Source: an uncultured Chloroflexia bacterium (lineage in GTDB: Bacteria > Chloroflexota > Anaerolineae > JAAYZQ01). From it: a stretch of DNA of 64,000 nt. The position numbers and the translations under genes are program-made. Location of the stretch: positions 128,001-192,000 of the forward strand of contig CAVOXA010000014.1 of NCBI GenBank assembly GCA_963700285.1, written 5' to 3'. Below are positions 10,637-47,587 of this stretch, piece after piece (positions within the stretch are counted from its first letter, which is position 1; each line of letters starts with the position of its first letter). Below the pieces are notes generated by a model. That model searched no databases. It saw nothing but the letters and a program-made list of their open reading frames with translations, and was not told where the DNA came from.

Positions 10637-11884
10637 TCAGTCGCCAGCTCCCGTCCTGATCACCAGCAGCGCCATGTCGTCAAACTGTGCTGCCCCTGCT
10701 TGGAACTGGCCGACGCGCTCAAAAACCAGGTCACACGCTCCTTGGGCATCCATTGCGCTGGCAGCAAGCATGGTATCCTGGAAACACTTCACCCCAAAGA
10801 ACTCACCAGAGGGCGAGATGGCATCCGTGATGCCGTCGGTGTAGAGGATGAGCAAGTCGCCAGAACCCAGACACACAGCGACTTCCTCAAGTACCACCTC
10901 TTCGACGACGCCCAACGCCATGCCCTCAGCATCCAGGACCTTGCACTCGCCCAGGTCAGCCTGCAAGAGCAGAGGACGATCGTGACCGGCCCTGACGTAT
11001 TGAAGGAGGCCCTGCCCCACATCGAGGACTCCGTAAAAGACGGTGACAAACATGCCAACCTGGCTCATCTCCAGCAGCAGGCAGTTGACATTGAGCAGCA
11101 CGGACCGGGGCGAGGGGTTGCGTTGGGCTTCGGCCCGGATCAAACTCCGGGTGAGGGCCATGAACAGCGCCGCGGCCATGCCCTTGTCCGACACGTCGGC
11201 CATCACCAGACCCACACGCTGGTCGCCCAGGGGGAAAACGTCATAAAAGTCACCGCCTACCTGCCTCGCGGGCCGGTAGCGGGCCGCACATTCCAAGCCC
11301 GGCAGGCGCGGGAATGCGCGGGGCAGGAAGCTGTGCTGGATGCCGCGGGCAAGCTCCAGCTCCCGCTCCAGGCGCTCCTTTTCCACCAGTTGGGCCTGAG
11401 CCTCCTCCAGTTCGCGAAAGGCCCGGGCCAGCTCCTCGTTCTTGCGCTGCAGATCGGCGATCATCTGCTGGTCTGACTCCCGCAGCCGGGCGCTGAGTAC
11501 CTGCATCGTACGGTACATCAACTGGGGCTGTTCCGACAGCAGGGAGTTCATGCCCGCTTCGGAAAGCTCCAGCAGCGTCGTGGGCTCCAGGGCGCGGATC
11601 GTGGCCGAGCGTGGCCGGCCGTCGACGAGGCCCATCTCGCCAAAGATCTGCCCTGGACCGCGTCTGCTCAGGACCATCTCTTCAGCGCCCTGCCCTTTGA
11701 CCACTTCGACCTGCCCTTCCACGATTATGTACACTTCACGTCCGGCGGTTCCCTCCCGCACGATCGTTTGCCCCGGCGCAAAGCTCCGCTCCTGCGCTGT
11801 CTCGGCCACCCATTCTAGCAGCTCCGGTCCAGCACCTTTCAGAAAGGGTACCTGGATCAAGACCTCCCTATCGAGCCTGGTCAT
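10637..11884 (-). CDS. cNMP-binding domain + coiled coil + PP2C/SpoIIE-type Ser/Thr phosphatase
   Basis: FGEMGLVDGRPRSAT cNMP cassette; VGGDFYD, ADVSDKG, YTDGITDA, DDMA PP2C motifs. Confidence 0.92.
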   Translation of the reverse strand: MTRLDREVLIQVPFLKGAGPELLEWVAETAQERSFAPGQTIVREGTAGREVYIIVEGQVEVVKGQGAEEMVLSRRGPGQIFGEMGLVDGRPRSATIRALEPTTLLELSEAGMNSLLSEQPQLMYRTMQVLSARLRESDQQMIADLQRKNEELARAFRELEEAQAQLVEKERLERELELARGIQHSFLPRAFPRLPGLECAARYRPARQVGGDFYDVFPLGDQRVGLVMADVSDKGMAAALFMALTRSLIRAEAQRNPSPRSVLLNVNCLLLEMSQVGMFVTVFYGVLDVGQGLLQYVRAGHDRPLLLQADLGECKVLDAEGMALGVVEEVVLEEVAVCLGSGDLLILYTDGITDAISPSGEFFGVKCFQDTMLAASAMDAQGACDLVFERVGQFQAGAAQFDDMALLVIRTGAGD

Positions 11885-12286
11885 GCGTCCTCACTCAAGC
11901 TACGGCCAAAGAACACCTTGCCCTCCATCCCCTGCCGGTGCACGGCCTGACCTGGTGCCCGGATGCCAGGCCGGTGTTGATGCCGACCCGCACACCAAAG
12001 CCATGGAGGCCGCGGTTTCGCTCCCGATGTGTCGTGTACTCTTGCGCACCCTTATGGCTACCACGTCACAAGCGTCCAGGGCCAAATCGGCCCAATCGCA
12101 GCTTCAACCTGTATTGGGCAGCAACGTCAATTGAAAGTATACCACAGTTGGGGGGAATCTACCACTGCCGAGAGACCATGCCAAACTGGACCAGTCTGGC
12201 ACGCAGGTGGCATTCTCGTTCACACGGTATCCTAGCCGCGAGGGCTTGTTGCTTTCAGGGTAACAGAGCTGATCTGGTCTTTCGAG

Positions 12287-15200
12287 TCAAGCCACGCGCT
12301 GCAGGTCCAGCAACCGCCTGCTTGTGTCGCGTTCAAGCTGCCGGCCCACGTACAGGTGCTCGCTGACCAGGCGGTCGAAATCATCTTTGGTTAAGGCCAA
12401 TACGCGTGTCGGCGCCAGGGCCGTGACGGTGGCCGTACGAGGAACTTGAAGCAAGAGCGCGATCTCGCCCACGTACTCGCCTGGCCCGCGCTCAGCAGCG
12501 ACGCGCAGCTCGCCATCCTGGCCCACGGATACCTGTACCCGCCCCGACTCGATGACATAGAAGGTCTCCCCCATCTCACCCTGGCGCATGAGGGCTGCGC
12601 CAGGCTCGTAGGTCTGGGCTTGCAGTTGGGCAGCGACGAGCCGGAGCTGTTGGGCGCCCATCTCGGCAAAGAGCGGTACGCGCCTCAGCAGTTCCACCTG
12701 GGTTATGGAGCGATCCACCTTGTCCCGCAGGGCAAAGCGAGCTTTGACCAACTGTTCAAAGTCGCGGCGGCTCAAGGACAGCAACTCTGTGGGTATTGTC
12801 GTCCGGCATGTGGCGTTGCGCGGGGCATCGTGCAGCAGCGCCAGCTCGCCAAAATAGCCCCCTCGGTCCAGTTGGTTCACCACCTCGGAGACTCCTCGTT
12901 CGTCGCGCTGTGTCACCTCGACGTGCCCGTGCCGGACGATGAAGAACCGGTCCCCGCGCTCACCCTGGCGGATGACGGCCCGGCCAGGCCCGTGGTGCTC
13001 TACCCGCAGGCGGGAGCAGACCAGGTCAACCTCGGCACCGTCCATGGTAGCGAAAAGGGGCATGCGCTGCAGCAGGCGCCTGTAATCCTGCTGTACAGTC
13101 TGAAAGTCAGCACTCAGGCTCTCGGCCCGCTTTACCTCGCGGAACAGGTATTGGACTCCGATCTCCCGCTCCTCCCAGGGCAACCCATCGTAGGCCCGCT
13201 GCAGAGACCGCACCGCCAGCTTTTCCCCTACCTCCTCGGCGGTCAGGTCCAGGAGCAGCCCCAGCACGGCAGCATAGATCTCGCCCTGCTCGATGAGGGG
13301 GCGCTCCGAGACTGTGGCCTCCTCGACCTGCCCTGCGACGATGCTCACCGCCCAGCCAGCGGCCAGGGCATAGTTGTTGAAACGCTCCACCAGGTTGCGG
13401 GCAGCCCGGTCGCCGGCAATCTGGCGGAACTGCTCCACGAGGTCGGACACAGTCCAGCCCAGGGCCCTTTGCAGACGGCGCCCGTCGCTCAGGTCAACCA
13501 CGGCCCTGGGTTGGTCGCTCAGGAGGGCGATGGACCTGAAGGCCAGGTGGTGGAGCAAAAGCCCTCCAGCCAGGAGCAGATAGGCAAGCAGCGGAACGCG
13601 GCCGGTGAGCGCCGAGACCGCCATTCCTCCCAGGCTGAAGATCAGCAGCGTCCAGGCCGGACCAAAACTCGTCCGCCAGAAAGAGACCAGGGTAGGCGCC
13701 ATCAGGGCCAGTGTCAGCAGCGGGAGCAGCCAGCCGCTGACGGTCAACAGCGCCCCGGCAACCGTAGGGCTGGCCTGCTGCTGTCGCGCGACCAGCCACA
13801 ACACCAAGCCGTAGCTTCCCGCCAGGCCAAGGACCAGCAGGGCCTTTCCCATCCGGCTCATCTCTTTGAGCTTCGCGCCGGAAAACAGGAGGAGGCCGGC
13901 CACGGCCAGAGCGCCATAGGCCAGGTAGGCCAGACCGATGGCGACAGGTGCGACGAGAATGGGCAGCACAGGCTGCCCTTCTTTCACCGCAATCGCCCCG
14001 GTTCCCACAAGTCCGATCAGCACAAGACTCGGCACAAGAGCCAGGGAAAAGAGCCCTATCAGCCAGAACACAGGCGACAGGCGGGATCCTGCATAGTCGG
14101 AAGCAATGCGCCAGGCGAGAAAGGCGGCAATGCTCAGAGCAGCCACGCCGATAACCGGGGTCAGCGCCCGGTAGGATAAGGCAGCAGGTACCAGGCTGAG
14201 CGCGACTGCGGCAGCCAGGAGCAAGGCAGCCACATTCCAGGGGTTGGCAAAGAGGCCCTTCCGGGCCGCCCAGAGCACAACCTTGCGGACCATGCTTAGC
14301 AGGGCCAGGCCGATGGATAGGACCAGGAGCAGGCTGAGGGCCGCCAACCCCAGGGCAAGCAAGATCCTGCCCACGCCGCCGCCCCGAGTCCACAGGTCGC
14401 GCAGCGCCCCAGCCAGCCGCCGCTGCCAAAAGTAGGCGCCCATCAAGATGGCGTAGGCGGTCCAGGCCGCCGACAACAGGCCAAAGACAGTAAAGATCTT
14501 TTCCTCGCGGGAGAAGGAGGGCAGGACGCCTTTAGGGCTGGCCGAGACTTCGGAAGTCTTGGAGACTTCCGAAGTCTGCTCTTGCCGGACAGCCTTGACC
14601 TTTTCCCACAAACCACCCCGGATAAAGGCCAGCGATTTGCGCCGCAGCATGGGGATGTCGAGCCAGTCCATGAGCAAGTAATAGCCATCCAACTCTAGCA
14701 GGGGATTGAGGTTGAAAAAGACCGTCAGGTAAGACAGAAAGGCGAACTGGAAGAGCAGGGGGTTCAGCGCGAAGGCAGGCCAGAGAAAGAGTACGATACT
14801 GGCCAGGCCTCCCAGGATCAGACCCGAGTAAGGGCCCGCCCAGGTGACGGCCAGGCGAGCCCGTTTGCCCTCCAGCCAGATGTCGGTGGTATCCACGAAA
14901 AAGGCGGGCATGCCAAAATAGATCATAAACCCGCCGCGCCGCACTTCGCGCCCATAGTGCTTGACCGTCAGGGCGTGGGCCATCTCGTGGATGAGGACGG
15001 CGAACAGGTTGGCCACGATCAGGCCCATCATGCCCAGCGCGATAGAACCGGCGATGGTCACCACGCCGTACTGTCCCCCGCGCAGGGCCTGGACAAAGGC
15101 ATAAAAGCCCAGTACCGTTACGAGCAGGTAGAGGATCAGCACCGGTCGGGCGAAGAGCAATCCACCGACCCGCCGATAGACACCACTCAACGCGCGATCC

Positions 15201-15682
15201 AGGCCACCGATGGTGAATTGCCTTTGCAGAAAAGACTGCCAGACCCGGGCCAGACGGTATTGGGGACGGCGTCTCAGCAGGCGGCCCCGCACCCGCTGGT
15301 AGACGTTGACCGGCCGCTCGCTGAGCAGCAGGCCAGCTTTGAGCCCCTCTACCAGGGCGGCCACACGAGCAAAGGCAAAGGAACCATATTCAAGAAAGTA
15401 GGCAACGACCAGGTCCTTGACCGTGCGGCGGCCATCCATCCGCTCCCACAAGAAGTGGTCCCGGTCGCTCAGGCGGTAGTAGGTCTTGGTGGCTGGATTC
15501 TTCAAGACATAGTACACGCCATCGCGCCCTGTCAGGCGGCTGGCTATCACGCCCGGCGCCGCCTGGGGTCGGTATTGGGCCATCTCCAGCTTTTCGTACA
15601 GCCAGGCCTTCAGGCCCAGCCAGCCCTGATCGGGCTGGCTGGTCTCTTGCCGCAGCGTGTCCCAGAGGGAGGTTGCTTCCAT
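12287..15682 (-). CDS. Fusion: PqqD/RRE-like domain + M50 zinc metallopeptidase + multi-TM block + two cNMP-binding domains
   Basis: N-terminal YYVLKNP..YYRLS..FLWERMDGRRTV (PqqD-like pattern); HEMAH, AGP, NLNPLLELDGYY (M50); FGELALLHDAPRNAT and VGEIALLLQVPRTAT (cNMP). Confidence 0.85.
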   Translation of the reverse strand: MEATSLWDTLRQETSQPDQGWLGLKAWLYEKLEMAQYRPQAAPGVIASRLTGRDGVYYVLKNPATKTYYRLSDRDHFLWERMDGRRTVKDLVVAYFLEYGSFAFARVAALVEGLKAGLLLSERPVNVYQRVRGRLLRRRPQYRLARVWQSFLQRQFTIGGLDRALSGVYRRVGGLLFARPVLILYLLVTVLGFYAFVQALRGGQYGVVTIAGSIALGMMGLIVANLFAVLIHEMAHALTVKHYGREVRRGGFMIYFGMPAFFVDTTDIWLEGKRARLAVTWAGPYSGLILGGLASIVLFLWPAFALNPLLFQFAFLSYLTVFFNLNPLLELDGYYLLMDWLDIPMLRRKSLAFIRGGLWEKVKAVRQEQTSEVSKTSEVSASPKGVLPSFSREEKIFTVFGLLSAAWTAYAILMGAYFWQRRLAGALRDLWTRGGGVGRILLALGLAALSLLLVLSIGLALLSMVRKVVLWAARKGLFANPWNVAALLLAAAVALSLVPAALSYRALTPVIGVAALSIAAFLAWRIASDYAGSRLSPVFWLIGLFSLALVPSLVLIGLVGTGAIAVKEGQPVLPILVAPVAIGLAYLAYGALAVAGLLLFSGAKLKEMSRMGKALLVLGLAGSYGLVLWLVARQQQASPTVAGALLTVSGWLLPLLTLALMAPTLVSFWRTSFGPAWTLLIFSLGGMAVSALTGRVPLLAYLLLAGGLLLHHLAFRSIALLSDQPRAVVDLSDGRRLQRALGWTVSDLVEQFRQIAGDRAARNLVERFNNYALAAGWAVSIVAGQVEEATVSERPLIEQGEIYAAVLGLLLDLTAEEVGEKLAVRSLQRAYDGLPWEEREIGVQYLFREVKRAESLSADFQTVQQDYRRLLQRMPLFATMDGAEVDLVCSRLRVEHHGPGRAVIRQGERGDRFFIVRHGHVEVTQRDERGVSEVVNQLDRGGYFGELALLHDAPRNATCRTTIPTELLSLSRRDFEQLVKARFALRDKVDRSITQVELLRRVPLFAEMGAQQLRLVAAQLQAQTYEPGAALMRQGEMGETFYVIESGRVQVSVGQDGELRVAAERGPGEYVGEIALLLQVPRTATVTALAPTRVLALTKDDFDRLVSEHLYVGRQLERDTSRRLLDLQRVA
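14545..14577. repeat. REP-like palindrome doublet lying in frame inside the M50 fusion gene
   Basis: AGACTTCGGAAGTCT-TGG-AGACTTCCGAAGTCT, read as QTSEVSKTSEVS. Confidence 0.8.
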
Positions 15683-15698
15683 AAGATGTCCAAGACAT

Positions 15699-15727
15699 CG
15701 AGCCGTCCGCACAGTGCGGACGGCTCG
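15699..15727 (-). terminator. 13-bp GC-rich hairpin between precursor gene and peptidase gene
   Basis: CGAGCCGTCCGCA-CAG-TGCGGACGGCTCG; no clear U-tract. Confidence 0.6.
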
Positions 15728-15794
15728 GTGCGGTTGTCAGACCCCCGATAGGCACTGACAAACCTGGGATTGAGGGGAAGAGATAATGTTAAAT

Positions 15795-16067
15795 CTAGAC
15801 GATCTTGAACTCCGGTCCCACCATAGGACCGGCGTCGACGCTGCCAAAGGCCACCATTCCGGCAAAGTCCATTTTGGAGATGCGCTCGTCCAGAGTACCG
15901 GCCAGCGTCTCCATGGTCTCTGCGTCAAGACTCTTCAGTGCGGCCACCTCCTCGTCCGTCAGCTCAAAGCCCGCCAGCGCCTCCTCGGGGCTGGCAAACA
16001 GAGCCTCGCGAAAGTCTTTCTCCAGTACTGCCTTGCCGATGACAGTTTCCACAGCTTCCTTGGACAT
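15795..16067 (-). CDS. NHLP-clan (Os1348/Franean1_4349-like) RiPP-type precursor peptide B, 90 aa
   Basis: AAAGGAG RBS; MSKEAVETVIGKAVLEKDFREALFASPEEALAGFELTDEE leader; leader ends LDERISK; 25-aa tail. Confidence 0.8.
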   Translation of the reverse strand: MSKEAVETVIGKAVLEKDFREALFASPEEALAGFELTDEEVAALKSLDAETMETLAGTLDERISKMDFAGMVAFGSVDAGPMVGPEFKIV

Positions 16068-16128
16068 GGTACACGCTCTCCTTTTCTTGAGTTTGGTCTC
16101 TCGGCCTGATGGGCTCAAATCTGACCTC

Positions 16129-16194
16129 ATTCTACAGCACAACCGGGCTCCTGTCTATGACCGCCTTCACAGGCTGACTGTGACCTGCGTCACA
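16129..16194 (-). promoter_or_regulatory. CRP-dependent promoter of precursor B: -10 plus two CRP boxes
   Basis: -10 TAGAAT (16134-16129); TATGA-N6-TCACA 16156-16171; perfect TGTGA-N6-TCACA 16179-16194. Confidence 0.85.
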
Positions 16195-16201
16195 GTATCG
16201 C

Positions 16202-16822
16202 TCAGCGGCGACAACCAATGTCCGCCAGCAGAACTTCTAGGGCCGCGATGTTCCGCTGCTTTCCCGTCCCGCGAAGGGCCCGCGCTGCCCCGGTAAAGTA
16301 GGTGTGTTCTCGAAGGAACTGGAGTTGGCGGCGATACCAGGCTTCCTTACCCAGCCGCACACCGTGCGCCGCCCACTCGGCACGCAGCGCCTCACTCTGA
16401 ACCAGGCCATCCTCCCGCCCCAGGCTATCGAGGTCAGCATCGGCCAGGATCTCTTCTAGGGACGTAAGGGGTCGCTGCGGCAGCCTGGTGGCCAGGATCA
16501 GCCCCTGGACCACGGACACCTGTTTTGGCGTGAAACCAAAGCAGGGCAGGACCAGGACCACGATCTCGGCGCCGGCCCGTTCGTGGTCGTGGTACTGGAA
16601 CAAGAATCCAATGTCATGATAGGCCGCGGCGATTTCGATGAGCCGGGTCTCATCCTCATCCATGCTGCTGGCCGCCGCCAATCGCAGGGCTGCGGGCAGC
16701 ACGTCATCGTTTGTATGGGAAAAGTTGTGGTAGGTCAGTTCCGGAGCCAGTTCGCTTTGCAGGCGGTCCAGCGCATAGCGCTTGGCAGCCTCAAAATCGG
16801 ACTGGCGGTGAGGGTAGCGCAT
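16202..16822 (-). CDS. HD-domain metal-dependent phosphohydrolase
   Basis: YHNFSHT, AAAYHDIG, ADADL motifs; start could be further upstream (ORF to 16909). Confidence 0.88.
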   Translation of the reverse strand: MRYPHRQSDFEAAKRYALDRLQSELAPELTYHNFSHTNDDVLPAALRLAAASSMDEDETRLIEIAAAYHDIGFLFQYHDHERAGAEIVVLVLPCFGFTPKQVSVVQGLILATRLPQRPLTSLEEILADADLDSLGREDGLVQSEALRAEWAAHGVRLGKEAWYRRQLQFLREHTYFTGAARALRGTGKQRNIAALEVLLADIGCRR

Positions 16823-17157
16823 GGCTTCCCGGCCAGCTCCTGCCCACGGCTCTCCGCTCAGAATCTGCCAGCCGGTCACGGCCTCCGGATCCGTTCCCTG
16901 GATAGCCATTGCGCAGGAATGCAGATCATTGGACGCTCACGCGGCAGCCCTCGCCCTTCGCTGCGCATCGACCGCAGTCCACGCATGGGATCCATGTGCG
17001 CTGGAGGGCGCACTTGGAGGCCCGCCCGAGCTTGGCGCAGGAAAGGCACGGGTCTGTGACCCGGCCTGAGGGAATTCGGACGGGCGAGCCGGTGTCATTA
17101 GCCGGCACAGGTGCCGGGGGAGGGAATGCGGCAGCACATGAGTCCGATGCAGGTCTT

Positions 17158-17448
17158 CTATGTGACCTCAATCAGGGACGCCCTGCCCATGTCACCCGAC
17201 TCGCCGGCCCACAGCCCGTTCCAGCCGTAGCTGAGCACGCCCTGGTAGTCACTCTTGGAAATGCGCTCGTCCAGGATGCCGGCAAACGACGCAATGGCCT
17301 CGGCATCGATGGTCTTCAGAGCGGCTGCTTCCGCCTCGGCCAGGTCGTAGCCGGCCAGTGCCCGGTCGGGATCTATGAAGAGGAGGTCGCGGAACTCGCG
17401 GTCCAGCACTGCCCTGCCGATAACGGCCTCTACGGCTTGCTTTGACAT
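17158..17448 (-). CDS. NHLP-clan (Os1348/Franean1_4349-like) RiPP-type precursor peptide A, 96 aa
   Basis: AAAGGGG RBS; MSKQAVEAVIGRAVLDREFRDLLFIDPDRALAGYDL leader; LDERISK; 31-aa tail; collinear with precursor B. Confidence 0.8.
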   Translation of the reverse strand: MSKQAVEAVIGRAVLDREFRDLLFIDPDRALAGYDLAEAEAAALKTIDAEAIASFAGILDERISKSDYQGVLSYGWNGLWAGESGDMGRASLIEVT

Positions 17449-17532
17449 AGGATTCCCCTTTCTTTCAGGCCGGTCCCGCCCCAGATCGCGGGCGTACCTG
17501 CTACAGCCCCATCGAGATCGCTAACTGGTACG

Positions 17533-17598
17533 AGTATAACGCACTGCCGGACTGTGGGCCATGAACTGCGTCACATCGTTGCTGTTAACTGGGTCACA
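17533..17598 (-). promoter_or_regulatory. CRP-dependent promoter of precursor A: -10 plus two CRP boxes
   Basis: -10 TATACT (17538-17533); CATGA-N6-TCACA 17560-17575; TGTTA-N6-TCACA 17583-17598. Confidence 0.8.
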
Positions 17599-17616
17599 CT
17601 CCAGGCTAGCGCCGGA

Positions 17617-17658
17617 CAAAACGAAAGGGATGGAAACAGCAGAACCGTTTCCATCCCT
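17617..17658 (-). terminator. Rho-independent terminator downstream of the CRP gene
   Basis: AGGGATGGAAAC...GTTTCCATCCCT 12-bp stem, then TTCGTTTT on the minus strand. Confidence 0.7.
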
Positions 17659-17776
17659 CACAGGCACAGCACCGTCTATTTGCTTATGACAAGATCATCT
17701 CGCGCTTCAGAGAGTGGCCGGGCTCTCCCCCCTGAGCGGCAACAGGGTTGGCGGCTTCGCAGGCGTCTCGGTCCCA

Positions 17777-18478
17777 TCAATACAGGATCCTTCTCTCCAA
17801 TCCCTGCCGGTCCAGAATCGTGACCCGATGCCCCTCGATCTCGATCAGCCCCTGGTCCCGGAAGGCGCCCAGTACCTTGTTCACCCTCTCCCGGCTGGCT
17901 GCTACCCAGGTGGCCAGCTCGGTCTGGGTCAGGCGGAGATCGATGGCGACAGTCTCATTGCCTTGCTCCCCTTCCTGTCCCTCCCGCCCGTAGCGCTCGG
18001 CCAGCTCCAGGAGCTTGGCCGCTACCCTGCCATAGACGTCGAGAAAGGACAGGCTCTCAACATAGGCAGTGGTATAGCGGACTCGGGCGCTCAGAACCTC
18101 CAGGATGCTTCTGGCCATACCGGGGCAGGATTCCAGGTGCCGCAAAAAGTCGTCTCGGCTCAGGGTCAGCGTCACCGTCTTTTCCATGGCCACCGCCCCG
18201 GCCGAACGCGGCAGGCCGTCGAGCAGTGCCAGCTCACCAAATACCTCACCGGGGCCGTAAACGTTGACCGAAATCTCCTGACCAGACTCGCTGATGATAA
18301 AGATGCGGACCTTGCCCGATTCGATGACGTACAGACTGTGGCCCCGGCCGCCCTTGTGAAAGATGATCATCCCCTTGCCAAAGGTGCGTTTCCCCAGGCT
18401 GCCGGCCAGGGTCTCCAGATTTTGGTCAGAGACTCTGGCAAAGAACGAAACGTTCCGAAGCTGATCCACCTGGGACAT
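17777..18478 (-). CDS. Crp/Fnr-family cNMP-binding transcriptional regulator
   Basis: FGELALLDGLPRSA cNMP cassette; LTQTELATWVAASRERVNKVL HTH with CRP-type R-E recognition residues. Confidence 0.95.
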   Translation of the reverse strand: MSQVDQLRNVSFFARVSDQNLETLAGSLGKRTFGKGMIIFHKGGRGHSLYVIESGKVRIFIISESGQEISVNVYGPGEVFGELALLDGLPRSAGAVAMEKTVTLTLSRDDFLRHLESCPGMARSILEVLSARVRYTTAYVESLSFLDVYGRVAAKLLELAERYGREGQEGEQGNETVAIDLRLTQTELATWVAASRERVNKVLGAFRDQGLIEIEGHRVTILDRQGLERRILY

Positions 18479-18879
18479 TCACACCTCCCGCGCGCGCTGC
18501 AAGCGATTGGAATGCTCCTATTCTAACACACAACAGCAGAAAACAAAACCACTACTCTCATTTCCCGTGTCGCCGTGGGTCGAAGGCATCCCGCGGTCAA
18601 TCGCCCACAAAGTCTAGGGACGTCGTCAACAGCGCACAGTGGTCGCACTCAAGCTCCCGGCCTAGGGCCCAGGTCAAGAACACGACAAGCCCTGCCCGAT
18701 ACCCCACTGAATGTTTTCGAGCAGCGTCGCGCTTGAGAGAAGGCGCAGGATCGCCCCGGCGATGGCGACCACCAGGTCCAGGGCTGTGATGGCCTGATTG
18801 GTCGGATAGATGGGGTCGATAGGGGTGCGTCCCGGGGCGTTACGTCACTCGGCTTCGTCGTGTCGCACCTCTTCGATTG

Positions 18880-19481: not shown

Positions 19482-19602
19482 ATAAGACTGGACACAAACG
19501 ACAAATCCAGCTGGCCAATGAACTGACTCTGACAACTAGAATCAAGCTCCGGAGGCTCTGCGACTGAGACCTGTTACTACGCGTGGTCGGCTCCAGAGAT
19601 AG

Positions 19603-37800: not shown

Positions 37801-38761
37801 CTGCAGCTCACCGTCCTCCATCGCCGTGTAAAAGGCATCCTGCAGGCGCTTCAACTCCGCTTCCCGGCCCACCATGCGCGTCTCTATACCTTCCACGCCC
37901 CGTTCCGGCTTGCGAAAAGCCCTCGCTTTGGCCCGCTCCACCAGGTAGGTCTGGACTGGCACCGACCGGCCTTTGACGTGTAACGGTTCCTGGGGCTGGA
38001 CATCAAAGACGCCGCGCACATGACGGTAGGTATCGTGGCTGATCAGGATGCCGCCCGACGGCGCGTTCTGCTCCATGCGGCGCCGCCAGGTTGACCGCGT
38101 CACCCATGGCCGTATACTCGACCCTGAGATCGGTGCCCACTTCGCCGACGACCACCAGCCCGGTGTTGATACCCACCCGCACGGCAAAGCCCCGGATCCC
38201 GCGCTCCCGCTCCAACTTGATGCCGTACTCCTGAGCCCCTGCGATGATGTCCAGTGCAGCCTTGCAGGCGCGCTCCGGGTCATCCTCGTGGGCGATGGGC
38301 GCTCCGAAAAAGGCCAGGATGGCGTCACCCATCAGCCGAGCAACAGTTCCCTCCTGGCGATAGATCGGCCCCATCAGGACATCAAAGGCGCCATCCATGA
38401 TCTCGAGCCATTCCTCCGGGTCCAGCTCCTCGGCCAAAGCCGTCGAACTCTTGATATCGGAAAACAGAATCGTGACCATGCGGCGTTCGCGGCTCAGGCG
38501 ACCGCGGGTGGCCTGCAGCCGGTCGGCGTACTCTCTCGGTACCAGGCGGTGCAGCCGCTCTGCAACGGCATCGGAAGAGCCACTGGCTTGGACGTCCACC
38601 TCCGCCGCTATCTCGCCGCCGCACACGAAGCAAAAGCGTGCATCCGGATCAGGCGGCAGATCTGTTCCACACTGGGGACATACCAGGGACAGCTTGGACC
38701 CACACCTCATGCAGAAACTAGCGCCGTCAGGGTTCCATTTTTCGCATTGCGAACAGCGCAT
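34817..38761 (-). CDS. Zinc ribbon-class III nucleotidyl cyclase-AAA/STAND ATPase-TPR-peptide-binding (family 5) fusion, copy 2 (frameshifts near 38080 and 36130)
   Basis: CxxC ribbons; ILFSDIKSST, RLMGDAI, YTAMGDAVNLAAR; GEAGVGKS, LEDLHWAD; WSDGVQVTAHDF, PFDDVRVRQA. Confidence 0.85.
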
Positions 38762-38874: not shown

Positions 38875-39927
38875 TCACGTCTCATGCAGCCGTGGATCAA
38901 GGGCATCCCGCAGCCCATCGCCAACAAAGTTGAAGGCCAGCGTCAGCAGGGTCAGCGCCAGGCCGGGCACTAGGACCAGGTGCGGGTTGGAGCGAAGGCC
39001 GGGATAACCCTCCTGGATCATGGCCCCCCAGCTTGGCGTCGGCGGGTTCACGCCCAGCCCGATGAAGCTCAGCGCCGCCTCGGCAAAGATAAAGCCGGGG
39101 ATGGCCAAGGTGGCGACCACCAGTAGGGGACCGATGGTGCTGGGCAGCAGGTGCCGAAACAGGATGCGCATCCTGCCCGCGCCGATGGCCCGGGCGGCCA
39201 GGACGAATTCCCGCTCCTTGTGGCTAAGCACCTGTCCCCGGGCCAGACGGGCGATGCCCAACCAGCTCAGCGCCCCCAGCGCGATGAACAAGAAGAGCAG
39301 CCCGCCCAGGGCATTGTTGGCCCCTATGAGAAAGCCGGCAGGACCGGTCGCCCCCTGGCGCGAGAGGGCCTTGAAATAGACCTGGAGCAGGATGATCAAC
39401 GTCAGCCCGGGGATGGCGTACAGAAAATCGACCACGCGCATCAGGGCCTCGTCCGTCCGCCCGCCGCTGTAGCCCGAAACAGCGCCATAGATGACCCCGA
39501 CGGCCAGGCTCACGGCCGTTGCCACAAAGGCCACGGCCAGGGAGACGCGGGCGCCGTAGACGGTCCGGCTCCAGAGATCGCGGCCCAGCCCGTCGGAGCC
39601 AGCAAGGAAGACTGTGCACGCTGGCTGCAAAGGGGTCCCGGCCCAGTGGCATTTCACCAGATGGTCCTCGTCGACACCGTAGCGGGTGAAGGGTTTGGCT
39701 CGACCGTTGGCGGTGTTCAGCGCGGCATAGTCATAAGGCGTGATGCAGGGAGCGATGATGGCCAGGAACACGACCAGAGCAATGAAAAGCGCTCCGGCCA
39801 CGGCCACCCTGTTGCGGCGAAACTGGCGCCAGGCATCTGTTACCGGACCCCGGCCCGTGCGCAGTTGATCCTGAACCCGTACTGCTGCTGGCCCCTCGTC
39901 TGCCATACTCACCAACGCTTCAGTCAT
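38875..39927 (-). CDS. Peptide ABC permease, OppC-like
   Basis: GSDGLGRD, EAALSFIGLG, GDGLRDALDPR. Confidence 0.92.
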   Translation of the reverse strand: MTEALVSMADEGPAAVRVQDQLRTGRGPVTDAWRQFRRNRVAVAGALFIALVVFLAIIAPCITPYDYAALNTANGRAKPFTRYGVDEDHLVKCHWAGTPLQPACTVFLAGSDGLGRDLWSRTVYGARVSLAVAFVATAVSLAVGVIYGAVSGYSGGRTDEALMRVVDFLYAIPGLTLIILLQVYFKALSRQGATGPAGFLIGANNALGGLLFLFIALGALSWLGIARLARGQVLSHKEREFVLAARAIGAGRMRILFRHLLPSTIGPLLVVATLAIPGFIFAEAALSFIGLGVNPPTPSWGAMIQEGYPGLRSNPHLVLVPGLALTLLTLAFNFVGDGLRDALDPRLHET

Positions 39928-40163
39928 GGGTGCGCCCTGGTCATTGCGCTCTGGGTCTAGGACTGGCAGGATCACTGCCACCCTCAACCTAGTCTTTGAA
40001 GAGGACACATGGCAATGCTATCACTGATTGGGTCCCGGGAGTCCCCAGCTTGCTGGGGTTCTTGCCCTCCGGGGACAGTCGCCCAGAGCAGGGCTTTGAC
40101 CTTGGCACAGGCGGACGCCCGGAACCACCACCGAGGGTCATCTATCAGACCAACAGTATCCCA

Positions 40164-41136
40164 TCAGTCGTACCGGATCCGTGGATCCAGCCAGGCGTAC
40201 ATGATGTCGACCATCAAGTTCCCGGCAACCAGGAATAGCGCATAGATCAGGGTGATGCTGGTCAGCAGAAAGTACTCGCGACTGCCGACGCTCTCCACGA
40301 ACTTTCGGCCCAGGCCGTCCAGGGCAAAGATCTGCTCGACGATGAAAGTCCCGGTGAGGACTCCGGCCAGGAGCGGGCCCAGGATGGTGGCCAAGGGGAT
40401 CATGGCGTTCTTGAGCACGTGGCGCAGTAGGACCCATTCCTCGCGCACGCCCTTGGCCCGGGCCGTCCGGGTATAGTCCTCGGACAGTACCTCCAGCATG
40501 CTGGCCCGCAGCAGGCGGGCGATACCGGCCGACAGCCCCAGACCCAGGGCGAGCACGGGCAGCACGGCATGCCGCCAGAAATCGGCCGTCGGCCGCGGCA
40601 GGAAACCCAGGATGTAGGGTGGCTCGGCCCCCCAGAAGGCGATGGGGAACCAGTCGAGGCGCAGGCCCAGAATCAGGATCAGCGCTGGACCCAGGACGAC
40701 GACGGGCATCGACGCGCCCAGCACGGCGAAAAAGGTGGCCGAATGGTCGACGAATGTGTTTCGCCGCCAGGCCGCGATCAAGCCGGCCGGCATGCCGATG
40801 GCGAAACCCACGAGCAGGGCCAAAACCCCGAGTTGGATGGAGACCGGCAGCGTGCGGGCCACCACGTCGTTCACCGTCTGGCCCGGCATGTGCAGCATGG
40901 GCCCCAGATCACCACGCAGCAGGTTGCCCATGTAGGCGCAGGAATTGCTCTGGCCAGAGGCCGGTCCAGGCCGTAGCGCTTCTCCATGACTAGACGGATG
41001 GATCGGGCATGTCCTTCTGGCCCATGGTGGAGAAGGGACCGCCGGGCAGGGCCTGGATCAGGGCAAAGGTCGCCGCGGCGATGGCAAAAAGTACCGGAAC
41101 CGACAGGAGCAACCGCCGGACAATGTGCCGGGTCAC
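40164..41136 (-). CDS. Peptide ABC permease, OppB-like (frameshifted near the 5' end)
   Basis: RHIVRRLL, PGGPF, RTARAKG, DPRIRYD. Confidence 0.9.
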
Positions 41137-43319
41137 CGGCGGGCTGCCTGCTTTGCTTCCCAGTCGATGGTCCAGTTGTGGAAGTGCATGCTGAAGGGAT
41201 CCTCTGGCCCCTGATCGAGCCAAGAGTGCACGGCCTCGATCGACATGTCCACGGTGAGGGGGATGAAGGGCAGATCGCCCTCTGGGCCGAAAAAGCCCTC
41301 TTCGATCTGGCGGTAGAGCGCGATCCGGCGGTCCGGGTCTGGCTCTTCCCGCGCCTGAACGATCAGATCGTCGAGCGCCCCACATTCCCGGCCACGCGCC
41401 GGCATTGTGCCACTCTTGCACCACAGCACATCCCCAACCCAGTTGTTCTCGTCAGGATAGTCGGCGGCCCAGCCCATCGTCCACAAGTGGGGCCGCGTTT
41501 CCGCTGGCCCCCGAGCGGCGTCCATCCGCTCGCGGAAGGACAGTTGCTCAACCTGGATCATTTCCGGGCTGCAGCCCAGGTGTTCCACCCATTGGGCCTG
41601 CGCGTATTCACCGTTGGGCAGCGCATCGGGGCCAGGACCGATCATCAGCGTCACCTGGGGAAAGCCGGCGCAGTCCGGGTATCCAGCCTGAGCCAGTTGC
41701 TCTCGAGCGAACTCGGGATCGAAGCCGACCCCACCTCGTAGATGGGCGGGGCGCCAAAGATGCCCGGAGGGGCAAAGTGCACCATCGGCAGGCCTGACCC
41801 TGCATCACCTCCTCTGCGAGGGTCTGGCGGTCAAAGGCCGCGTTAAAGGCCCGACGCACATGCACATTGTCGAAGGGCGGCTTGTCGCGGGCGAAGCCAA
41901 GATAGAGCACCGCCGGATCGGGCACCGGATCCCCTTCGTCCGGGAACTGCTCCAGGTGCGCCTGCAGCTCCAGATCCGGGATCCCGAGACATCCACCTCA
42001 TTGTTGAGCCACAGGGCATAGCCGGTGACTCAGGTCGGGCACCACTCTGACCACGGTGCGCTCGATGTTGCCGCTACCGCGCAGGTCCTGGGGCATCAGC
42101 GGGTTGCGCCACAGGCTGCTGCGAACCCCACGCTGCCACTCGTGCAGCACGAAGCGGCCGTTGGTGACAATGCTTGCCCGGCTCTATCCAGGCTTCGCCG
42201 TGCTCCTCGACGGCCCACTGAGGCGTCGCCGCCAGCGTCCACATGGGCGTCATCGACAGAAAGTAGCTGGCCGGAAACGCCAGCTCGATGACCAGCGTGT
42301 CGTCCGCCGGCCCGGACCCCGATGGCCTCGACCAGTTCCGGCGGGATCGCAGCCGGATCTTCCGCGTACAGGACCTCTTCGCAGCCTTTAATCAGGGGCG
42401 CGACCACAGCGCTATAGTAGGAACCAACGTCGGGATCGCAGGCGCGCTTGATAGCGTATGCGAAATCGTGGGCCGTAACGGTGCGGGGCTTGCCTGCCTC
42501 GTCCAGCACTTGCCTCGTCTCGCCCGTGTCCGGGTCGTGGCGGACCCAGGGGATGTCGGTGCGCAGCTTGAAGGTGTAGACCAGGCCGTCGTCGCTGACC
42601 TGCCAGCTCTCTGCTACCTCGGGTACGAGCTCGAGCGTCTCTGGATCCCGGTCGGTGAGGTTCATGAACAGGTTTTCGATTTCGTCGAACGAGACCACGT
42701 CGCTGGCCAGTTGAGGGACATGGGCCGGGACGTCGGCATACAGCACGGCCTCGCAGCCCTTGATCAGCGGCGCTACCACGCTGCTGTAGTAACTGCCCAG
42801 GTTGGGATCGCAAGCGCGCTTGATGGCGTAGGCGAAATCGTGGGCCGTCACAAAGCGGGGGTTGCCCGCCTCGTCCAGCACCTGCTCCGTGTCGCCCGTG
42901 TCCGGGTCGTGGCGCACCCAGGGGATGTCAGGCCGCAGCTCGAAGGTGTAGACCAGGCCGTCGTCGCTGACCTGCCAGCTCGTAGCGGCCTCGGGCACGA
43001 ATTCGAGAGACTCCGGGTCGCGGCTCGTCAAGCTGACAAACAGGTTCTCGACAAAGTCGATCGAGCCCGCGTCATCGGCCAATTGCGGATCAAGGGTGGA
43101 GATCTCTGTGGTACGATAGCCATCAAAGGTCACAGGCTCCTGCGACGCCGACGGCGATGGCACGGCCGTCAGAGCGGGCGACGGAGCCTGCTCTCCGGTA
43201 GATGAAAGTACTGCAGTCTCCCCCAGGACCGCCGGCTCCGGGGTCGAAGCGCAGCCGGCCAGTACCATTGCCGCCAAGATCAAGGGCAACCGCAAACTTG
43301 GGTATCTCCTCTTTATCAT
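41133..43319 (-). CDS. Peptide ABC substrate-binding lipoprotein, OppA-like, with an internal 372-bp duplication (frameshifted)
   Basis: Lipobox LAGC; SDDGLVYTF/VTAHDFAYAIKR present twice; PFDNVHVRRAF; GWAADYPD. Confidence 0.85.
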
Positions 43320-43461: not shown

Positions 43462-46400
43462 TCAGTGCGGCTCGATGACCATGTCTTTCCAGAAGAACGC
43501 GCCCGACGCCGACCTGGGGCTGCTCCGGACCCATGGCTTGACCAGCATATGCACCCTCGGGTAGGAGAGGGGTAGGAGGGGCACCTGCTCGACCAGGACA
43601 AGTTCTGCTTGAGCGTACAGCGCCATCCGCTCTGCCAGGTCCATGGCACGCCGTGCCCGCTCGATGAGGGCAAAGTACTGCTCTTCGCGCCAGGCCGTGG
43701 CGCGCTGCACCGCCACGCGGAGGTAAGTATCCGGATCCGGGTAGTCAGGCCCCCAGGCCACCAGAGTCAGGTGAGGTGGAGCGTTGCGGACCCGGTTGAT
43801 GAACTCGGCCCACGGTAGGACCTGGTAGCCGATCTCTACCCCCAAGATCTCATGCCACTGCGCCTGCAGGTGCGGGGCCTGGGCCCGGAACCCAAGAGGT
43901 GCCAGCAACTCCACCTCAGGGAAACCCCTGCCGCCAGAATATCCGGCCTCTGCCAGGAGTTGCCGGCCACGCTCTGGGACGTACGGCAGGGCGATACCCG
44001 CCGAGTGTCCCGGCATGCCAGGCGGCACAAGCCCGCCGGTAGCCGGCTGGTAGTAGCCGGCGGAGGTGACGTCGACCAGTCCCTCCCGGTCCAGTGCATA
44101 GGCAAAGGCCAGCCGCACCCGGAGGTCGTCAAAGGGCGTGCGTGTCAGATCAAAGGCCAGGTAGCGGGTTAGCACCCCGGGTTGCGTTATGTAGTCCCCT
44201 GCCAACCTCCGCCGTACCCGATCCGCCTCTTTCGGGTCGTCAACATCCAGCCCGATGATATCCAGAAGATCGGCCTCGTACATCTCGAGAATAGAACGCC
44301 AATCCCCTAGGAGACCCAGCGGCAGCTCCACTCGTTGGACGTTGCCGCCGAACCGCCCGTGGTACCGCAGGTTGCGCACAAGTACCAAGGAGTTGCCCCG
44401 CTGCCATGAATCCAGTCTAAGGGGCCCATTGGTGAGGATGTTCTCGGGCTCCGACCAGGCTGAGCCCAGTCGCTCAACGAGGTGGCGAGGAACCGGATAC
44501 AGGGCGCTGTAGCTCAGCAGTGGCAGAAGGTATCCCGTCGGCGCCTCAAGCTCCACGGCGAGTGTGACGTCGTCAATGGCCATCACACCCAGGCCATCCG
44601 ACTTGGAGACGTGTCTATTGTGGTATGCCTTGGCCCCCTTTATGTCGTATAGCAGGCTGGCATTTCGGGATTCACTCGCAGGAGCCAGCACGCGCTTCCA
44701 GGCGTAGACAAAGTCATGGGCTGTCACCGGCACCCCGTCACTCCAATAGGCATCAGCCCGCAGGCGAAAAACAACCCTGCGCCCATCCCGGGAGACCTCC
44801 CAGCTTGCAGCCACGTCAGGCACAACGCCACCGTCATAGGTGAAATCCACCAGCCCACTGAATAGTTGTTCAACGAGATCGAGGGAACCCTCGTCAGTCG
44901 CGAATGCTGGGTCCAGGGTCAGCGGGTCAACGCCTGGCTCCCTGAGGGCATGGGGTGCAGGCGGCAGCGAAGCGGCAGTGGCGGCCTCTTCCGCACGGCG
45001 CCAGAAGGCAAAGCCCTCGTCATAGGCCAGGCGGGCCTGCTGGAAGTCAAAGGCCGCATCGTGCGTCAGCCCCAACCGCATCAATGTGCGCGCCGCTTGC
45101 TCATCCTCTCCTGCCTCTTTCAGGGACACCAGCGCCCGCTGGTAATAGTCCGTCGCCTCCTGGAGGGCATAGGCAAGCCTCGCCCGATCCCCTGCCCGCA
45201 ACAGGTACTCTGTCGCCTTCTCGACGTCACCGGCTCGCTCCCAGTGGTAGGCCAGCAAGCCCACCTGCTCCTCCACCCGCACGTGGAACAGTCGCTCTAG
45301 CGCCTCGGCCACCTGCCGGTGGAAGACACGCCGGTCTTTTATCAATAGTCCGTTGTAAGCTGCCTCCTGGGTCAGCTGGTGCTTAAAGATGTACTCCAGA
45401 TCCGGCAGCCGCGCTCTCTCACGTATCATCTCTTCCCGCTGCAGCGTCTGCAGCTCAGCGTGCAAATCGCGTTCCTCATGGGCGAGCTGCGTCAGCACCC
45501 GGCACAGAAAGAGCCGCCCGATGACCGCCGCCATCTGCAACACCCGCTTCGTCTCCTCCTCCAGCCGGTCGATGCGGGCCGCCAACACCCCCTGCAAGGT
45601 GTCTGGGATTGCGATCTCGCTCACCTCCCGCGCCGCCAGCCAGCGACCTGTCCCTACCTCTTGCTCGATGGCTCCCTCATCGATCAAGGAGCGCAGTACC
45701 TCCTCCAGGAAGAAGGGGTTGCCCTCGGCCCGGTCCAGGATTCTCTCCTTAAGCTCAGGGGGCAGGCATTCCATCCACAGCAGGTTTCCCACCAACCGCC
45801 CACTCTCAGCCTCGGACAGGGGATCAAGCCACAGATCGGTGTGCCGCTGTCCGTGGTCCCGGGCAGCCGTTTGCCTCAACTGCCAGGACTTGTGCGACCG
45901 CTCCGGGCGGAATACGCAGACGATCAACAGCGCGTGCCCTTCGGTGACGGCCAGCAGCTTTTCCAGCAACTCTATCGACGTCGGGTCCGCCCAATGCAGG
46001 TCCTCCACGACAAGCACCAGGGACCTTTCCCTGGCCGCAGATGCAACCAGCGTCTCCACAGCGCGGAACGTGGCAGACTTGAGCTCCCGGCCATCCAAGT
46101 GGCTCAGCCTGGCCTCCGACTCTTTTTCCAGTGGTAGGGACATCAGCGCGGCCAGGAAAGGGTAGACCTCATCAGACTGCTCAGGGTACAGGGCCTGGAC
46201 GCGTCCTCGCAGGGCATCCCCGACATCCACAGGACCGTCCCCCACGCGCACTCCCAGCAGCCCTCGCAGCAGATCGAGCCAGACAAGATAGGCCACGGAG
46301 CCACCGTAGGACAGACAGCGGCCCTCGACCCATTGGACCCAGCCTTGTGAAGGCTCCTTCGCAAGGCTTTGCTTGCGCAGCTCCGCCACCAGCCGTGACT

Positions 46401-47405
46401 TGCCGATCCCGGCTTCGCCTACGAGGGTCGCGATGCCGCCCGCCCCGGTCTGCAGGCGGTCCAGCGCCTCGGTCAGGGCAGCCAACTCTTCTACCCTACC
46501 CACCAGCGGAGAATCCAGCCCGGCGATGCCACGCAGCTTGCCGGGGGCATCCTCTGGCGCCAGCACCCGGTAGACGTCGACTCGCTCCATCCGGCCCTTG
46601 ACCTCAATTGGCCCTAGGGCCTCCGTCTCAAATAGAGGCGCGACCAGTTTGTGGGTGGCCTCACTGATCAGCACCGTGCCTGGCTCCGCCGCCGACTCTA
46701 TCCGCGCCGCCAGGTTCACCGCGTCGCCCATGGCCGTGTACTCGACCCGCAGGTCCGAGCCCACCTCGCCCACGACGACCAAGCCGGTGTTGATCCCCAC
46801 CCGCACGTTGAACCCCTGGACCCCTCGCTCTCGCGCCAGACGCGTTGCATAGTCTTGAGCACCCGCGATTATGTCCAGGGCAGCGCGACAGGCCCGCTCC
46901 GCATCGTCCTCGTGGGCAATCGGCGCGCCAAAGAAGGCCAGGATGGCGTCGCCCATCAGCCGGGCCAGCGTGCCCTCGTAACGGGTTACGGGCTCGATGA
47001 GGACGTCAAAGGCCCCGTCCATGATCTCCATCACGTCTTCCGGATCGAGTTCTTCGGCCATGGCCGTCGAACCCTTGACGTCACAGAAGAGGATGGTTAC
47101 CGTGCGCCGCTCACGGCCCACCTGGCCCCGCGAAGCCAGCAACCGCTCGGCGTACTCTTTGGGCACCAAGCCGTCTCAGGAGGCGGCCGCCGTTGGCCTC
47201 AGGCGCAGGCCGCGGTTCGCAGCCAGGGCTGCGCCAGTACCTAGGGCGGATGGGCAGCACGGTTCGCGCCGCAGTCAAGACAAAACCTGGCCTGGAGGGG
47301 CAGCTCAGTGCCGCACTGGGCGCAGATCAGACCAGCCTGGACCCGCACTTCAGGCAGAACTTGGCGCGTTCGGGATTTTCGGTGGTCGCAGCTCGCACAC
47401 TGCAT
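43462..47405 (-). CDS. Zinc ribbon-class III nucleotidyl cyclase-AAA/STAND ATPase-TPR-peptide-binding (family 5) fusion, copy 1 (frameshifts in N-terminal ribbon)
   Basis: Continuous 1235-aa ORF joins ILFCDVKGST/RLMGD/GDAVNLAARIE, GEAGIGKS/VEDLHWAD, GNPFFLEE and WSDGVPVTAHDF..WGPDYPDP. Confidence 0.9.
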
Positions 47406-47558
47406 CTCAACCCTCCGATCTGCGTAGCGGTTTGTGCGAGATTATCGGTACAAAGACATCTCGCCTTTCGCGCCAGTCTTCGCCACGATAAGCGTGTGAC
47501 GGTAGCGACAGAGGCCAGGTGTCCCTGGTTCTGGCCCAGAGCGAAGAACCCCTACTCG

Positions 47559-47587
47559 ATTATAGAACAGATGAACAGATTTGTCAA
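47559..47587 (-). promoter_or_regulatory. Consensus sigma70 promoter of the cyclase-Opp operon
   Basis: TTGACA-17-TATAAT on the minus strand. Confidence 0.75.

Follow-up and report, generated by a model that had tools for sequence, protein, structure and literature searches.

A conserved and apparently undescribed cyclic-nucleotide/peptide gene cassette in Chloroflexota

Introduction

Could a bacterium read a peptide of its own making with a soluble adenylate cyclase and so control, through cyclic AMP (cAMP), the genes for that peptide? This question is raised by a 64,000-nucleotide stretch of DNA from an uncultured Chloroflexia bacterium (genome G000, contig CAVOXA010000014.1; G000:C14:128001-192000), hereafter the window, in which two loci, A and B, encode a CRP-family regulator, small peptide precursors, a protease with cyclic-nucleotide-binding domains and two cyclases ending in peptide-binding domains; all named parts lie on the minus strand. 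To our knowledge, bacterial peptide signals are read either by membrane kinases or by RRNPP proteins. RRNPP signalling relies on the receptors Rap, Rgg, NprR, PlcR and PrgX, which are TPR proteins with an N-terminal HTH or a Rap three-helix effector, on precursor export by a signal peptide or an Eep/ABC route, with Eep a site-2 protease, and on import by Opp. A first-pass annotation of the window had proposed a closed loop in which a processed peptide is re-imported by Opp, bound by a cyclase and fed back through CRP on its own gene. The analysis described here partly supports that interpretation, and the conserved cyclic-nucleotide/peptide cassette at its centre is real and apparently undescribed.

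Results

Cyclase, CRP, precursor and protease genes recur together

Locus A carries a gene for a CRP-family regulator found by domain searches (17777..18478), with an intact cyclic nucleotide monophosphate (cNMP) pocket (GE..PRSA) and an SRE recognition helix. It also carries two precursor genes of the Os1348/Frankia_peptide family, recognised by PF14407 and NF038399 (precursor 1, 17158..17448; precursor 2, 15795..16067), and a gene recognised by Pfam and NCBIfam models for an M50 (site-2) metalloprotease that combines an RRE (PqqD), an extra helical membrane block and two cNMP domains (12287..15682). Locus B carries cyclase A (43462..47405) and cyclase B (34817..38761), both recognised by Pfam. 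The loci lie 16.3 kb apart in this assembly with unrelated genes between them, and their link had been called the least certain part of the first-pass proposal.

The surroundings of the protease gene were compared in 80 related loci, the 80 best out of 185, whose titles name Anaerolineae or Chloroflexota in nearly every case. A cNMP fusion was found in 68 of these loci, a precursor gene in 32, a CRP gene in 28, where it immediately precedes the precursor or protease gene, both CRP and precursor in 21, and a cyclase gene in 17. Where loci with CRP and precursor had at least 8 kb of upstream sequence, a class III cyclase was present in 11 of 15, against about 3% expected by chance. None of 80 generic cyclase-STAND loci carried CRP, precursor or protease; this background came from a metagenome scan for cyclases fused to a family 5 peptide-binding domain (cyclase-SBP5), which returned mostly other cyclase-STAND genes on short contigs, only 26 of the loci being 10 kb or longer.

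Gene order in relatives bridges the two loci. In G259, a genome of the same genus, genes for cyclase-SBP5, CRP, precursor, HD hydrolase, precursor, protease, cyclase-SBP5 and PP2C phosphatase follow each other in one run. The first of these cyclases, directly upstream of CRP, shares 84% DNA identity with cyclase B over 3,688 nt, and the G259 homologues of the 16.3-kb block and of oppABC are placed elsewhere. The order cyclase-SBP5, CRP, precursor, M16 peptidase, protease occurs in G300 and L094. G280 shows this order too, with a TPR-ending cyclase, the sole class III cyclase match in that genome, and a 63-residue SBP5 remnant; G255 and G232 have two cassettes each, in one of which cyclase-SBP5 stands directly before the precursor and CRP follows.

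In a class sample of 301 genomes, with two candidates scored per genome, the protease gene was found in 28 and the cyclase-SBP5 fusion, confirmed by inspection of the loci, in 16. An RRE-M50 gene was present in 12 of the 16 genomes with cyclase-SBP5 as against 16 of the 285 others (Fisher p 5e-11) and, by family, in 8 of 9 as against 6 of 52; some of the 12 have a protease with degenerate cNMP domains or with none. Because genes for cyclase, CRP, precursor and RRE-M50-cNMP stand side by side in several relatives and also co-occur, the cyclase link between the two loci is well supported, and the co-occurrence of precursor, RRE-M50-cNMP and cyclase-SBP5 genes that the first-pass annotation had named as a check was indeed found across Chloroflexota genomes. 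We are confident that cyclase, CRP, precursors and protease form one functional unit under CRP, and the neighbouring cyclase quite probably supplies the nucleotide.

A paralogous cassette lies elsewhere in the same genome (G000:C5:258970-269600; L008:6899-17572). It consists of an HD gene, an MFS-cNMP gene, about 1.5 kb of degenerate tandem repeats, CRP, a triple CRP box, a precursor, an M16 peptidase, an RRE-M50 protease with two cNMP domains and a small Cys-rich protein, with no cyclase adjoining. A second subtype (L107, L110, L112, L117, L119 and L122) comprises a lipoprotein zincin (HExxH) with a MAM domain, CRP, the protease, a small Cys protein and a terminal precursor that has long tails of five-residue repeats and stands behind a single perfect CRP box. 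From this subtype, a short peptide may be released in many copies, and the position of the lipoprotein zincin upstream of CRP suggests extracellular processing.

Precursor promoters match class II CRP geometry

In class II CRP activation, the CRP box is centred near -41.5 and overlaps the -35 element. Boxes of the form TGTGA-N6-TCACA are paired exactly 23 bp apart before both window precursors, at 16156/16179 and 17560/17583. The CRP-type promoter of precursor 2 (16129..16194), assigned like the other by box and hexamer geometry, comprises boxes at 16179-16194 and 16156-16171, the -35 element TAGACA (16152-16157), a 17-bp spacer and the -10 element TAGAAT (16129-16134); that of precursor 1 (17533..17598) comprises boxes at 17583-17598 and 17560-17575, a 17-bp spacer and the -10 element TATACT (17533-17538). 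The 7.05-Mb genome G000 holds 27 pairs of neighbouring CRP-like sites (two mismatches at most) within 45 bp, six of them with the 23-bp spacing, and four of these six precede the two window precursors and the paralogous C5 precursor with its three boxes. In 15 precursor promoters of relatives, the spacing of the two boxes is 23 bp without exception; the -35 hexamer is overlapped by the proximal of the two, and the -10 element follows after 17 bp at an equal offset. A weight matrix built from 13 precursor promoters of other genomes and run on G000 placed its three precursor promoters at the top (43.8, 41.6 and 37.6 bits), the best non-precursor site scoring 17.1. As judged from sequence, the three precursor promoters of G000 and the 15 of relatives match class II CRP geometry, and the conservation of this geometry supports the predicted CRP control of the precursors that the first-pass annotation had put forward.

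For the genes of the cyclases, of CRP itself, of HD, protease and PP2C and for oppA, control by CRP was considered and rejected: no box was found within 300 nt of them, except for a site with two mismatches 105 nt before cyclase A, which is at chance level. Tandem boxes with 23-bp spacing were also rejected as a unique marker, the pattern having matched in 23 genomes of a 301-genome phylum sample, 15 of them in one other Chloroflexota family, where it lies upstream of other genes. The pattern therefore marks CRP control and not this system. In loci L274 and L275 (f81, another Chloroflexota family), the tandem promoter stands before genes for small peptides rich in Gly, His and Cys, the leader of which is of the double-glycine type.

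Contigs at least 99% identical to precursor 2 are present in all four metatranscriptome libraries considered, which come from four studies, were picked because they match this stretch and were taken as contigs only. The ends of these contigs, at 16106 in three studies and at 16111 in one, lie 11-16 nt downstream of the start predicted near 16122, and that they are shared is a weak hint of this start. Short, near-identical contigs of depth 2-3 cover precursor 1 in three of the four libraries.

Precursors of one leader family and a predicted leader peptidase

Both window precursors have a 65-aa leader that ends in LDERISK, followed by a tail of 31 aa in precursor 1 and 25 aa in precursor 2; no signal peptide was seen in either. 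They score above the cut-offs of PF14407 (65 and 57 bits; cut-off 48) and NF038399 (84 and 75 bits; cut-off 40), so that the two NHLP-clan precursors of the first-pass annotation, each behind tandem CRP boxes next to CRP, are borne out by profile scores as well as by the 23-bp spacing. The leader-end motif was found in 41 of 49 precursors examined. In these 41, tail length ranges from 3 to 252 residues (median 31), and the only motif common to the tails is a hydrophobic start, present in 35.

No radical SAM, YcaO, ATP-grasp or Lan modifying enzyme was found in the window locus with Pfam, and one radical SAM query gave a match in 1 of the 80 related loci. The earlier description of the precursors as RiPP-like (ribosomally synthesised and post-translationally modified peptides) thus stands for the leader family and falls for modification. 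The same genome has a separate RiPP cluster (G000 C1; L010:5014-15896), in which four Os1348-family precursors alternate with four radical SAM genes, together with an RRE-M50 gene without cNMP domains, a small Cys-rich gene and a helical protein that is possibly prenyltransferase-like, a label that is a guess. The tandem CRP promoter is absent from this cluster, and the matrix misses its four precursors.

The zinc motifs of the window protease are intact (HEMAH and NLNPLLELDG), and H232, E233, H236, N324, P327 and D332 are invariant in 62 sequences, so that the HExxH and NxxP-x-D ligands are kept. The Pfam M50 score is 16 bits, below the cut-off, and the daptide protease model NF041824 gives 146 bits against a cut-off of 300. 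About 12 hydrophobic segments are indicated by hydropathy. Both phosphate-binding cassettes are intact and, in the predicted structure (pLDDT 87), the tandem cNMP domains match the regulatory domains of PKA and PKG. These domains took up the matches in fold searches with the model; protease residues 1-471 had no sequence match in the PDB, and the extra membrane block (residues 470-870) had no match in the Atlas. The protein is predicted to be a leader peptidase, and there are good grounds to expect that it cuts the precursor.

The state of the cNMP pockets differs with genomic context. All 18 CRP-linked copies have at least one intact pocket (16 have both, 2 have one), whereas both pockets are degenerate in 21 of the 28 copies without CRP nearby. 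A clade of 31 proteases (e.g. L123, L129 and L154) has lost the phosphate-binding Arg in both pockets; its members mostly lack a neighbouring CRP or precursor and may sense another ligand.

STAND cyclases that end in a peptide-binding domain

Cyclases A and B share one architecture, a double zinc ribbon followed by class III cyclase, AAA_16 (STAND) ATPase, TPR and SBP_bac_5 domains. Their family 5 ends and their position on both sides of oppABC had been recognised in the first-pass annotation; the STAND ATPase and the TPRs of both had been overlooked, and the start of the upstream cyclase, then placed at 47587, is corrected to the ATG at 47405. The open frame 43462-47169 of cyclase A covers the cyclase, STAND, TPR and family 5 parts, its sole frameshift being in the N-terminal zinc ribbon. 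Cyclase B is broken in this assembly by frameshifts at 36143 and 38079. Since short-read contigs of a related strain differ by single-base indels at both breaks, these frameshifts are probably assembly errors and the gene intact.

The class III motifs FCDVKGS/FSDIKSS, MGDA and NLAAR are kept and with them the metal-binding Asp pair, the Asn and the Arg, the NLAA-R of cyclase B being cut by the frameshift at 38079. Adenylyl cyclases have Lys and Asp/Thr at the two base-specifying sites. Here the Thr is present, Arg stands in place of Lys, and the product is likely to be cAMP. The Walker motifs are intact (GEAGIGKS and VVEDLHW), and the order of effector, NTPase and repeat sensor is that of the AC-STAND type. 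Neither cyclase has a hydrophobic segment or signal, for which reason cyclase A is predicted to be cytoplasmic; it is 65% identical to the G300 cassette cyclase.

The terminal domain gave MppA, OppA and DppE as top Foldseek matches (TM 0.79-0.90). It forms the C-terminal part of the cyclase and is not an exported or lipid-anchored component of an ABC importer; both the STAND cyclase and the OppA-like domain are carried by 119 of the 120 best homologues. In OppA, the Asp of the W..DY motif holds the amino terminus of the peptide, and an Arg binds the carboxylate of a tripeptide. The W..DY motif is kept in 19 of 21 binding-domain sequences and the pocket loops are variable; the Arg to which this carboxylate role is ascribed is not kept in the cyclase binding domain. 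Loci L182, L183 and L185 encode SARP-STAND-TPR-family 5 fusions, widespread in the class, in which the sensor module is joined to a DNA-binding effector.

Opp, HD, PP2C and other neighbours

Between the two cyclases lie oppC, oppB and a lipoprotein oppA that is frameshifted in this assembly (38875..43319, Pfam), with no oppD or oppF. The first-pass annotation had taken these genes for a dedicated peptide re-importer, and this did not hold. OppB stands beside the protease in 0 of the 80 related loci, and the single locus with OppC has it on the opposite strand. In the sister genome G259, a different contig carries the orthologous opp genes, and no opp genes lie near 15 other cyclase-SBP5 loci, several of them on short contigs. 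Thus, oppABC is probably outside the conserved system. Within oppA, an internal duplication of about 120-140 codons is 80% identical (42342-43160), and a related-strain contig skips 372 nt within it, as a strain feature or an assembly artefact.

An HD-superfamily hydrolase that is a candidate cNMP phosphodiesterase (16202..16822) and a cNMP-binding domain fused to a SpoIIE/PP2C phosphatase (10637..11884), both recognised by Pfam, complete the set of genes that had been reported with the protease at 10637-18478, all of which are present. The first-pass annotation had given them the parts of signal off-switch and output in the loop; with HD in 2 and PP2C in 12 of the 80 related loci, they are optional and not core. 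A class I phosphodiesterase assignment for HD was rejected, only generic HD matches being obtained. In L012 and L108, receiver-cyclase proteins end in fused HD domains that are 51-63% identical to that of the window. These are receiver-double cyclase-TPR-HD fusions (L012:5674-10599, in G000:C1, and L108:4533-8066), one beside an MFS-cNMP transporter and one directly upstream of a cassette. A STAS gene stands beside the cNMP-PP2C gene in G255, L096 and L099, and G280 has STAS and an anti-sigma kinase beside the cassette cyclase; the cNMP-PP2C protein is likely a cNMP-gated output to a partner-switching (STAS/anti-sigma) module.

A small Cys-rich gene was found in 43 and an M16 gene in 12 of the 80 related loci, and neither was found in the window. 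A 70-aa Cys/His-rich protein of no clear family (L008:17360-17572) represents the commonest gene after the protease across these loci. The interposed block (18489-34814) encodes photolyase, staygreen, DUF1722 (two copies), DUF2867/epimerase, carotenoid-desaturase-like and DUF1295 proteins, several of the genes being frameshifted. No contig bridges the junction at 34814, so that the 16.3-kb interposition may reflect a misassembly, and one RNA library is sparse over the cyclase region.

Discussion

Based on these results, we propose that the cassette may be a cAMP-peptide positive-feedback circuit, to which we give slightly less than an even chance. A soluble STAND cyclase would be switched on by a ligand at its C-terminal sensor, which is a family 5 peptide-binding domain here and a TPR or other sensor in some relatives, and would make cAMP; MalT-type STAND proteins offer an analogy for such ligand activation. 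cAMP-CRP would turn on the precursor promoters, and the RRE-M50 protease, itself bound by cAMP at its tandem cNMP domains, would dock the leader, cut near LDERISK and free a tail, usually with a short hydrophobic start. The tail or a trimmed piece would be the cyclase ligand and would close the loop; M16 or lipoprotein zincin peptidases, which accompany some cassettes, are candidate trimmers. The peptide would either leave the cell and re-enter through general Opp systems or act only inside the cell. HD would break down cAMP and reset the circuit, and cNMP-PP2C would relay the signal to a sigma-factor switch. That the tail is the cyclase ligand seems to us, from the sequences, about evenly balanced. 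A bolder version appears rather unlikely. It would make the cassette a third class of bacterial peptide quorum sensing, in which a soluble STAND adenylate cyclase binds a re-imported peptide through its OppA-like domain, cAMP closes the loop twice (at the precursor promoter through CRP and at a cAMP-gated leader protease), and variable tails with variable pockets provide strain-specific channels in sediment and sludge Chloroflexota.

In favour of a feedback circuit stand the adjacency and co-occurrence of cyclase and cassette, the conserved tandem-box promoters, the intact cNMP pockets of CRP-linked proteases, the W..DY motif and variable pocket loops of the binding domain, and a leader fold in common with the ComX precursor. 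Several observations weigh against it. The tails, from 3 to 252 residues long, have no common motif beyond the hydrophobic start, which may serve the protease instead of a receptor and which precursor 1 of the window lacks, and the second subtype also allows a product that is not a signal. No exporter is conserved with the cassette. The SBP5 fusion occurs in only 4 of the 11 cyclase-bearing loci, one of them fragmentary, the rest having TPR-only, WD40 or receiver-HD cyclases, and the L095 cassette has a CHASE2 membrane cyclase. Near the 15 other cyclase-SBP5 loci, several on short contigs, neither CRP nor a precursor nor the protease was found. An RRE-M50 match is missing from four genomes that have the fusion, and G186 (95% complete) has a full cassette with a triple CRP box and no class III cyclase match at all. 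The STAND-TPR-SBP5 module also bears SARP DNA-binding domains and may be a general peptide or murein sensor. Kinship and genome size inflate the counts of co-occurrence, which come from sets that overlap with the 80 loci, and the loss of cNMP pockets, confined in a quick tree to the one 31-member clade, amounts to a single evolutionary event.

Because tails vary and cyclases are swapped, an open chain is a strong rival, and we hold it to be a real, if minority, possibility. The cyclase would then sense imported dietary oligopeptides, murein peptides or, in relatives, a phosphorelay or extracellular cue, and cAMP-CRP with the cNMP-gated protease would yield a peptide whose action lies elsewhere, as a structural, adhesive or antagonistic product. 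Such a chain accords with cyclase sensors that are interchangeable across cassettes, with long low-complexity repeat tails of up to 252 residues, with the murein tripeptide binder MppA as the top fold match, with cyclase-SBP5 genes that are mostly found without the cassette and with the link of Os1348 itself to antibiotic activity (PMC7726476). It leaves unexplained, however, why a cyclase with a peptide-binding type of sensor stands beside a peptide-producing module in at least three families (f1, f43 and f40), twice in the one G259 operon, and why many tails are 3-8 residues long, the size bound by OppA-type domains; nor is a modifying enzyme, immunity gene or exporter conserved.

Coincidence of the two loci in the window is very improbable. 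G000 is rich in class III cyclase genes (at least seven) and in oppB/oppC pairs (about 30), and 16.3 kb of unrelated genes separate the loci, but the cyclase B orthologue directly upstream of CRP in G259, with the homologues of the interposed genes elsewhere, and the recurrence of the cyclase-cassette order in other families mean that synteny largely refutes it; for oppABC, chance does hold. Defence or alarm is improbable too. Here the STAND cyclase would recognise a protein or peptide derived from an invader, and cAMP would set off dormancy or a peptide alarm in a filamentous organism, along lines proposed for actinobacterial peptide-processing systems with AP-ATPases and CRP. The STAND-TPR architecture, the fast-diverging tails and a toxin-antitoxin-like pair within the cassette in G300 and G280 would suit this role, as would the conflict-linked association of precursor, peptidase and AP-ATPase-TPR, sometimes with CRP, in section 24 of PMC7159879. 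On the other hand, PADLOC returned only generic cyclase and cNMP domain matches and none for the HD or STAND parts; no nuclease, TIR or pore effector is conserved, the neighbours are mostly housekeeping genes, and precursor contigs occur in 4 of 4 RNA libraries, themselves chosen for matching this stretch.

The proposed circuit resembles RRNPP signalling in its ribosomal precursor, M50 processing, predicted cytoplasmic TPR receptor and likely positive feedback on the precursor gene. It differs in that the candidate receptor is a 1,300-aa STAND cyclase with an OppA-like domain and no HTH-TPR or Rap protein, the only TPR proteins in the cassette being the cyclase-STAND fusions; in that transcription would run through cAMP-CRP; in its folded 65-aa leader without signal peptide; and in its dedicated, RRE-fused protease with cNMP domains.

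The daptide protease MpaP, which has an N-terminal RRE and an intramembrane site-2 protease domain and is encoded near short precursors whose leader it removes (PMC10036551), is similar in its fusion and gene neighbourhood. Unlike daptide clusters as described there, the window has no ELExMEAP leader, terminal Thr, decarboxylase, aminotransferase or methyltransferase, and its protease is longer by 660 residues, which include membrane helices and two cNMP domains. The leader family, to which both window precursors belong by curated cut-offs, is common to Pseudomonas Os1348, whose cluster is Gac-controlled and has predicted modifying enzymes and efflux genes (PMC7726476), in contrast to CRP control and no modifying enzymes here. 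The leader fold has been grouped with that of ComX, a pheromone precursor (PMC12353581). Among published systems, the actinobacterial FxSxx-COOH systems come nearest as an analogue; they combine a small variable precursor, a metallopeptidase, a STAND-class AP-ATPase with TPRs and occasionally CRP, and their peptide has been proposed as an amplifying signal (PMC7159879). Their soluble zincin, conserved C-terminal motifs (FxSxx/RxD/acidic), radical SAM enzyme and VMAP/vWA-MoxR context were not found here, and section 24 of that paper makes no mention of a cyclase-STAND fusion, a family 5 domain, an RRE-M50 protein or CRP boxes. HetC of Nostoc, a C39/ABC exporter, is likewise a peptide-processing membrane protein with a cNMP-family domain; that domain bound ppGpp, not cAMP, in vitro (PMC10986499), which shows that cAMP is not necessarily the ligand when a peptide processor has a domain of the cNMP family.

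Cyclase-STAND proteins are also annotated next to RiPP clusters as TOMM-linked proteins (TIGR03903 and TIGR03896), but cyclase A lacks a kinase domain and scores 290 bits with TIGR03903, the cut-off being 706. Natriuretic peptide receptors, the transmembrane guanylyl cyclases of animals, are activated by a processed peptide. They too join a sensor of binding-protein fold and a class III cyclase in one chain; this is an analogy only, and no homology is claimed, since they are transmembrane, use another binding-protein class and have no STAND ATPase. Pycsar, with PycC and a cNMP-binding TIR or transmembrane effector, differs as well: only partial, domain-level PADLOC matches were obtained, there is no TIR and the cyclase is a STAND fusion. 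A search of openly accessible papers found no description of this system, in agreement with the first-pass annotation, which knew of none with this wiring; passages of PMC2887384, PMC8939145 and PMC13712780 hold nothing on it.

Most of the hosts are uncultured Anaerolineae, a group in which little is known of signalling between cells. Two of the proteins deserve attention under any of these mechanisms: a site-2 protease that joins an RRE to tandem cNMP domains like those of PKA, as a candidate for an intramembrane protease gated by cAMP, and a STAND cyclase that has an OppA-like domain as its sensor, as a candidate ligand-gated cAMP switch. If the proposed circuit is true, a cyclase acting as peptide receptor would be a new route of bacterial peptide signalling, tying it to a second messenger.

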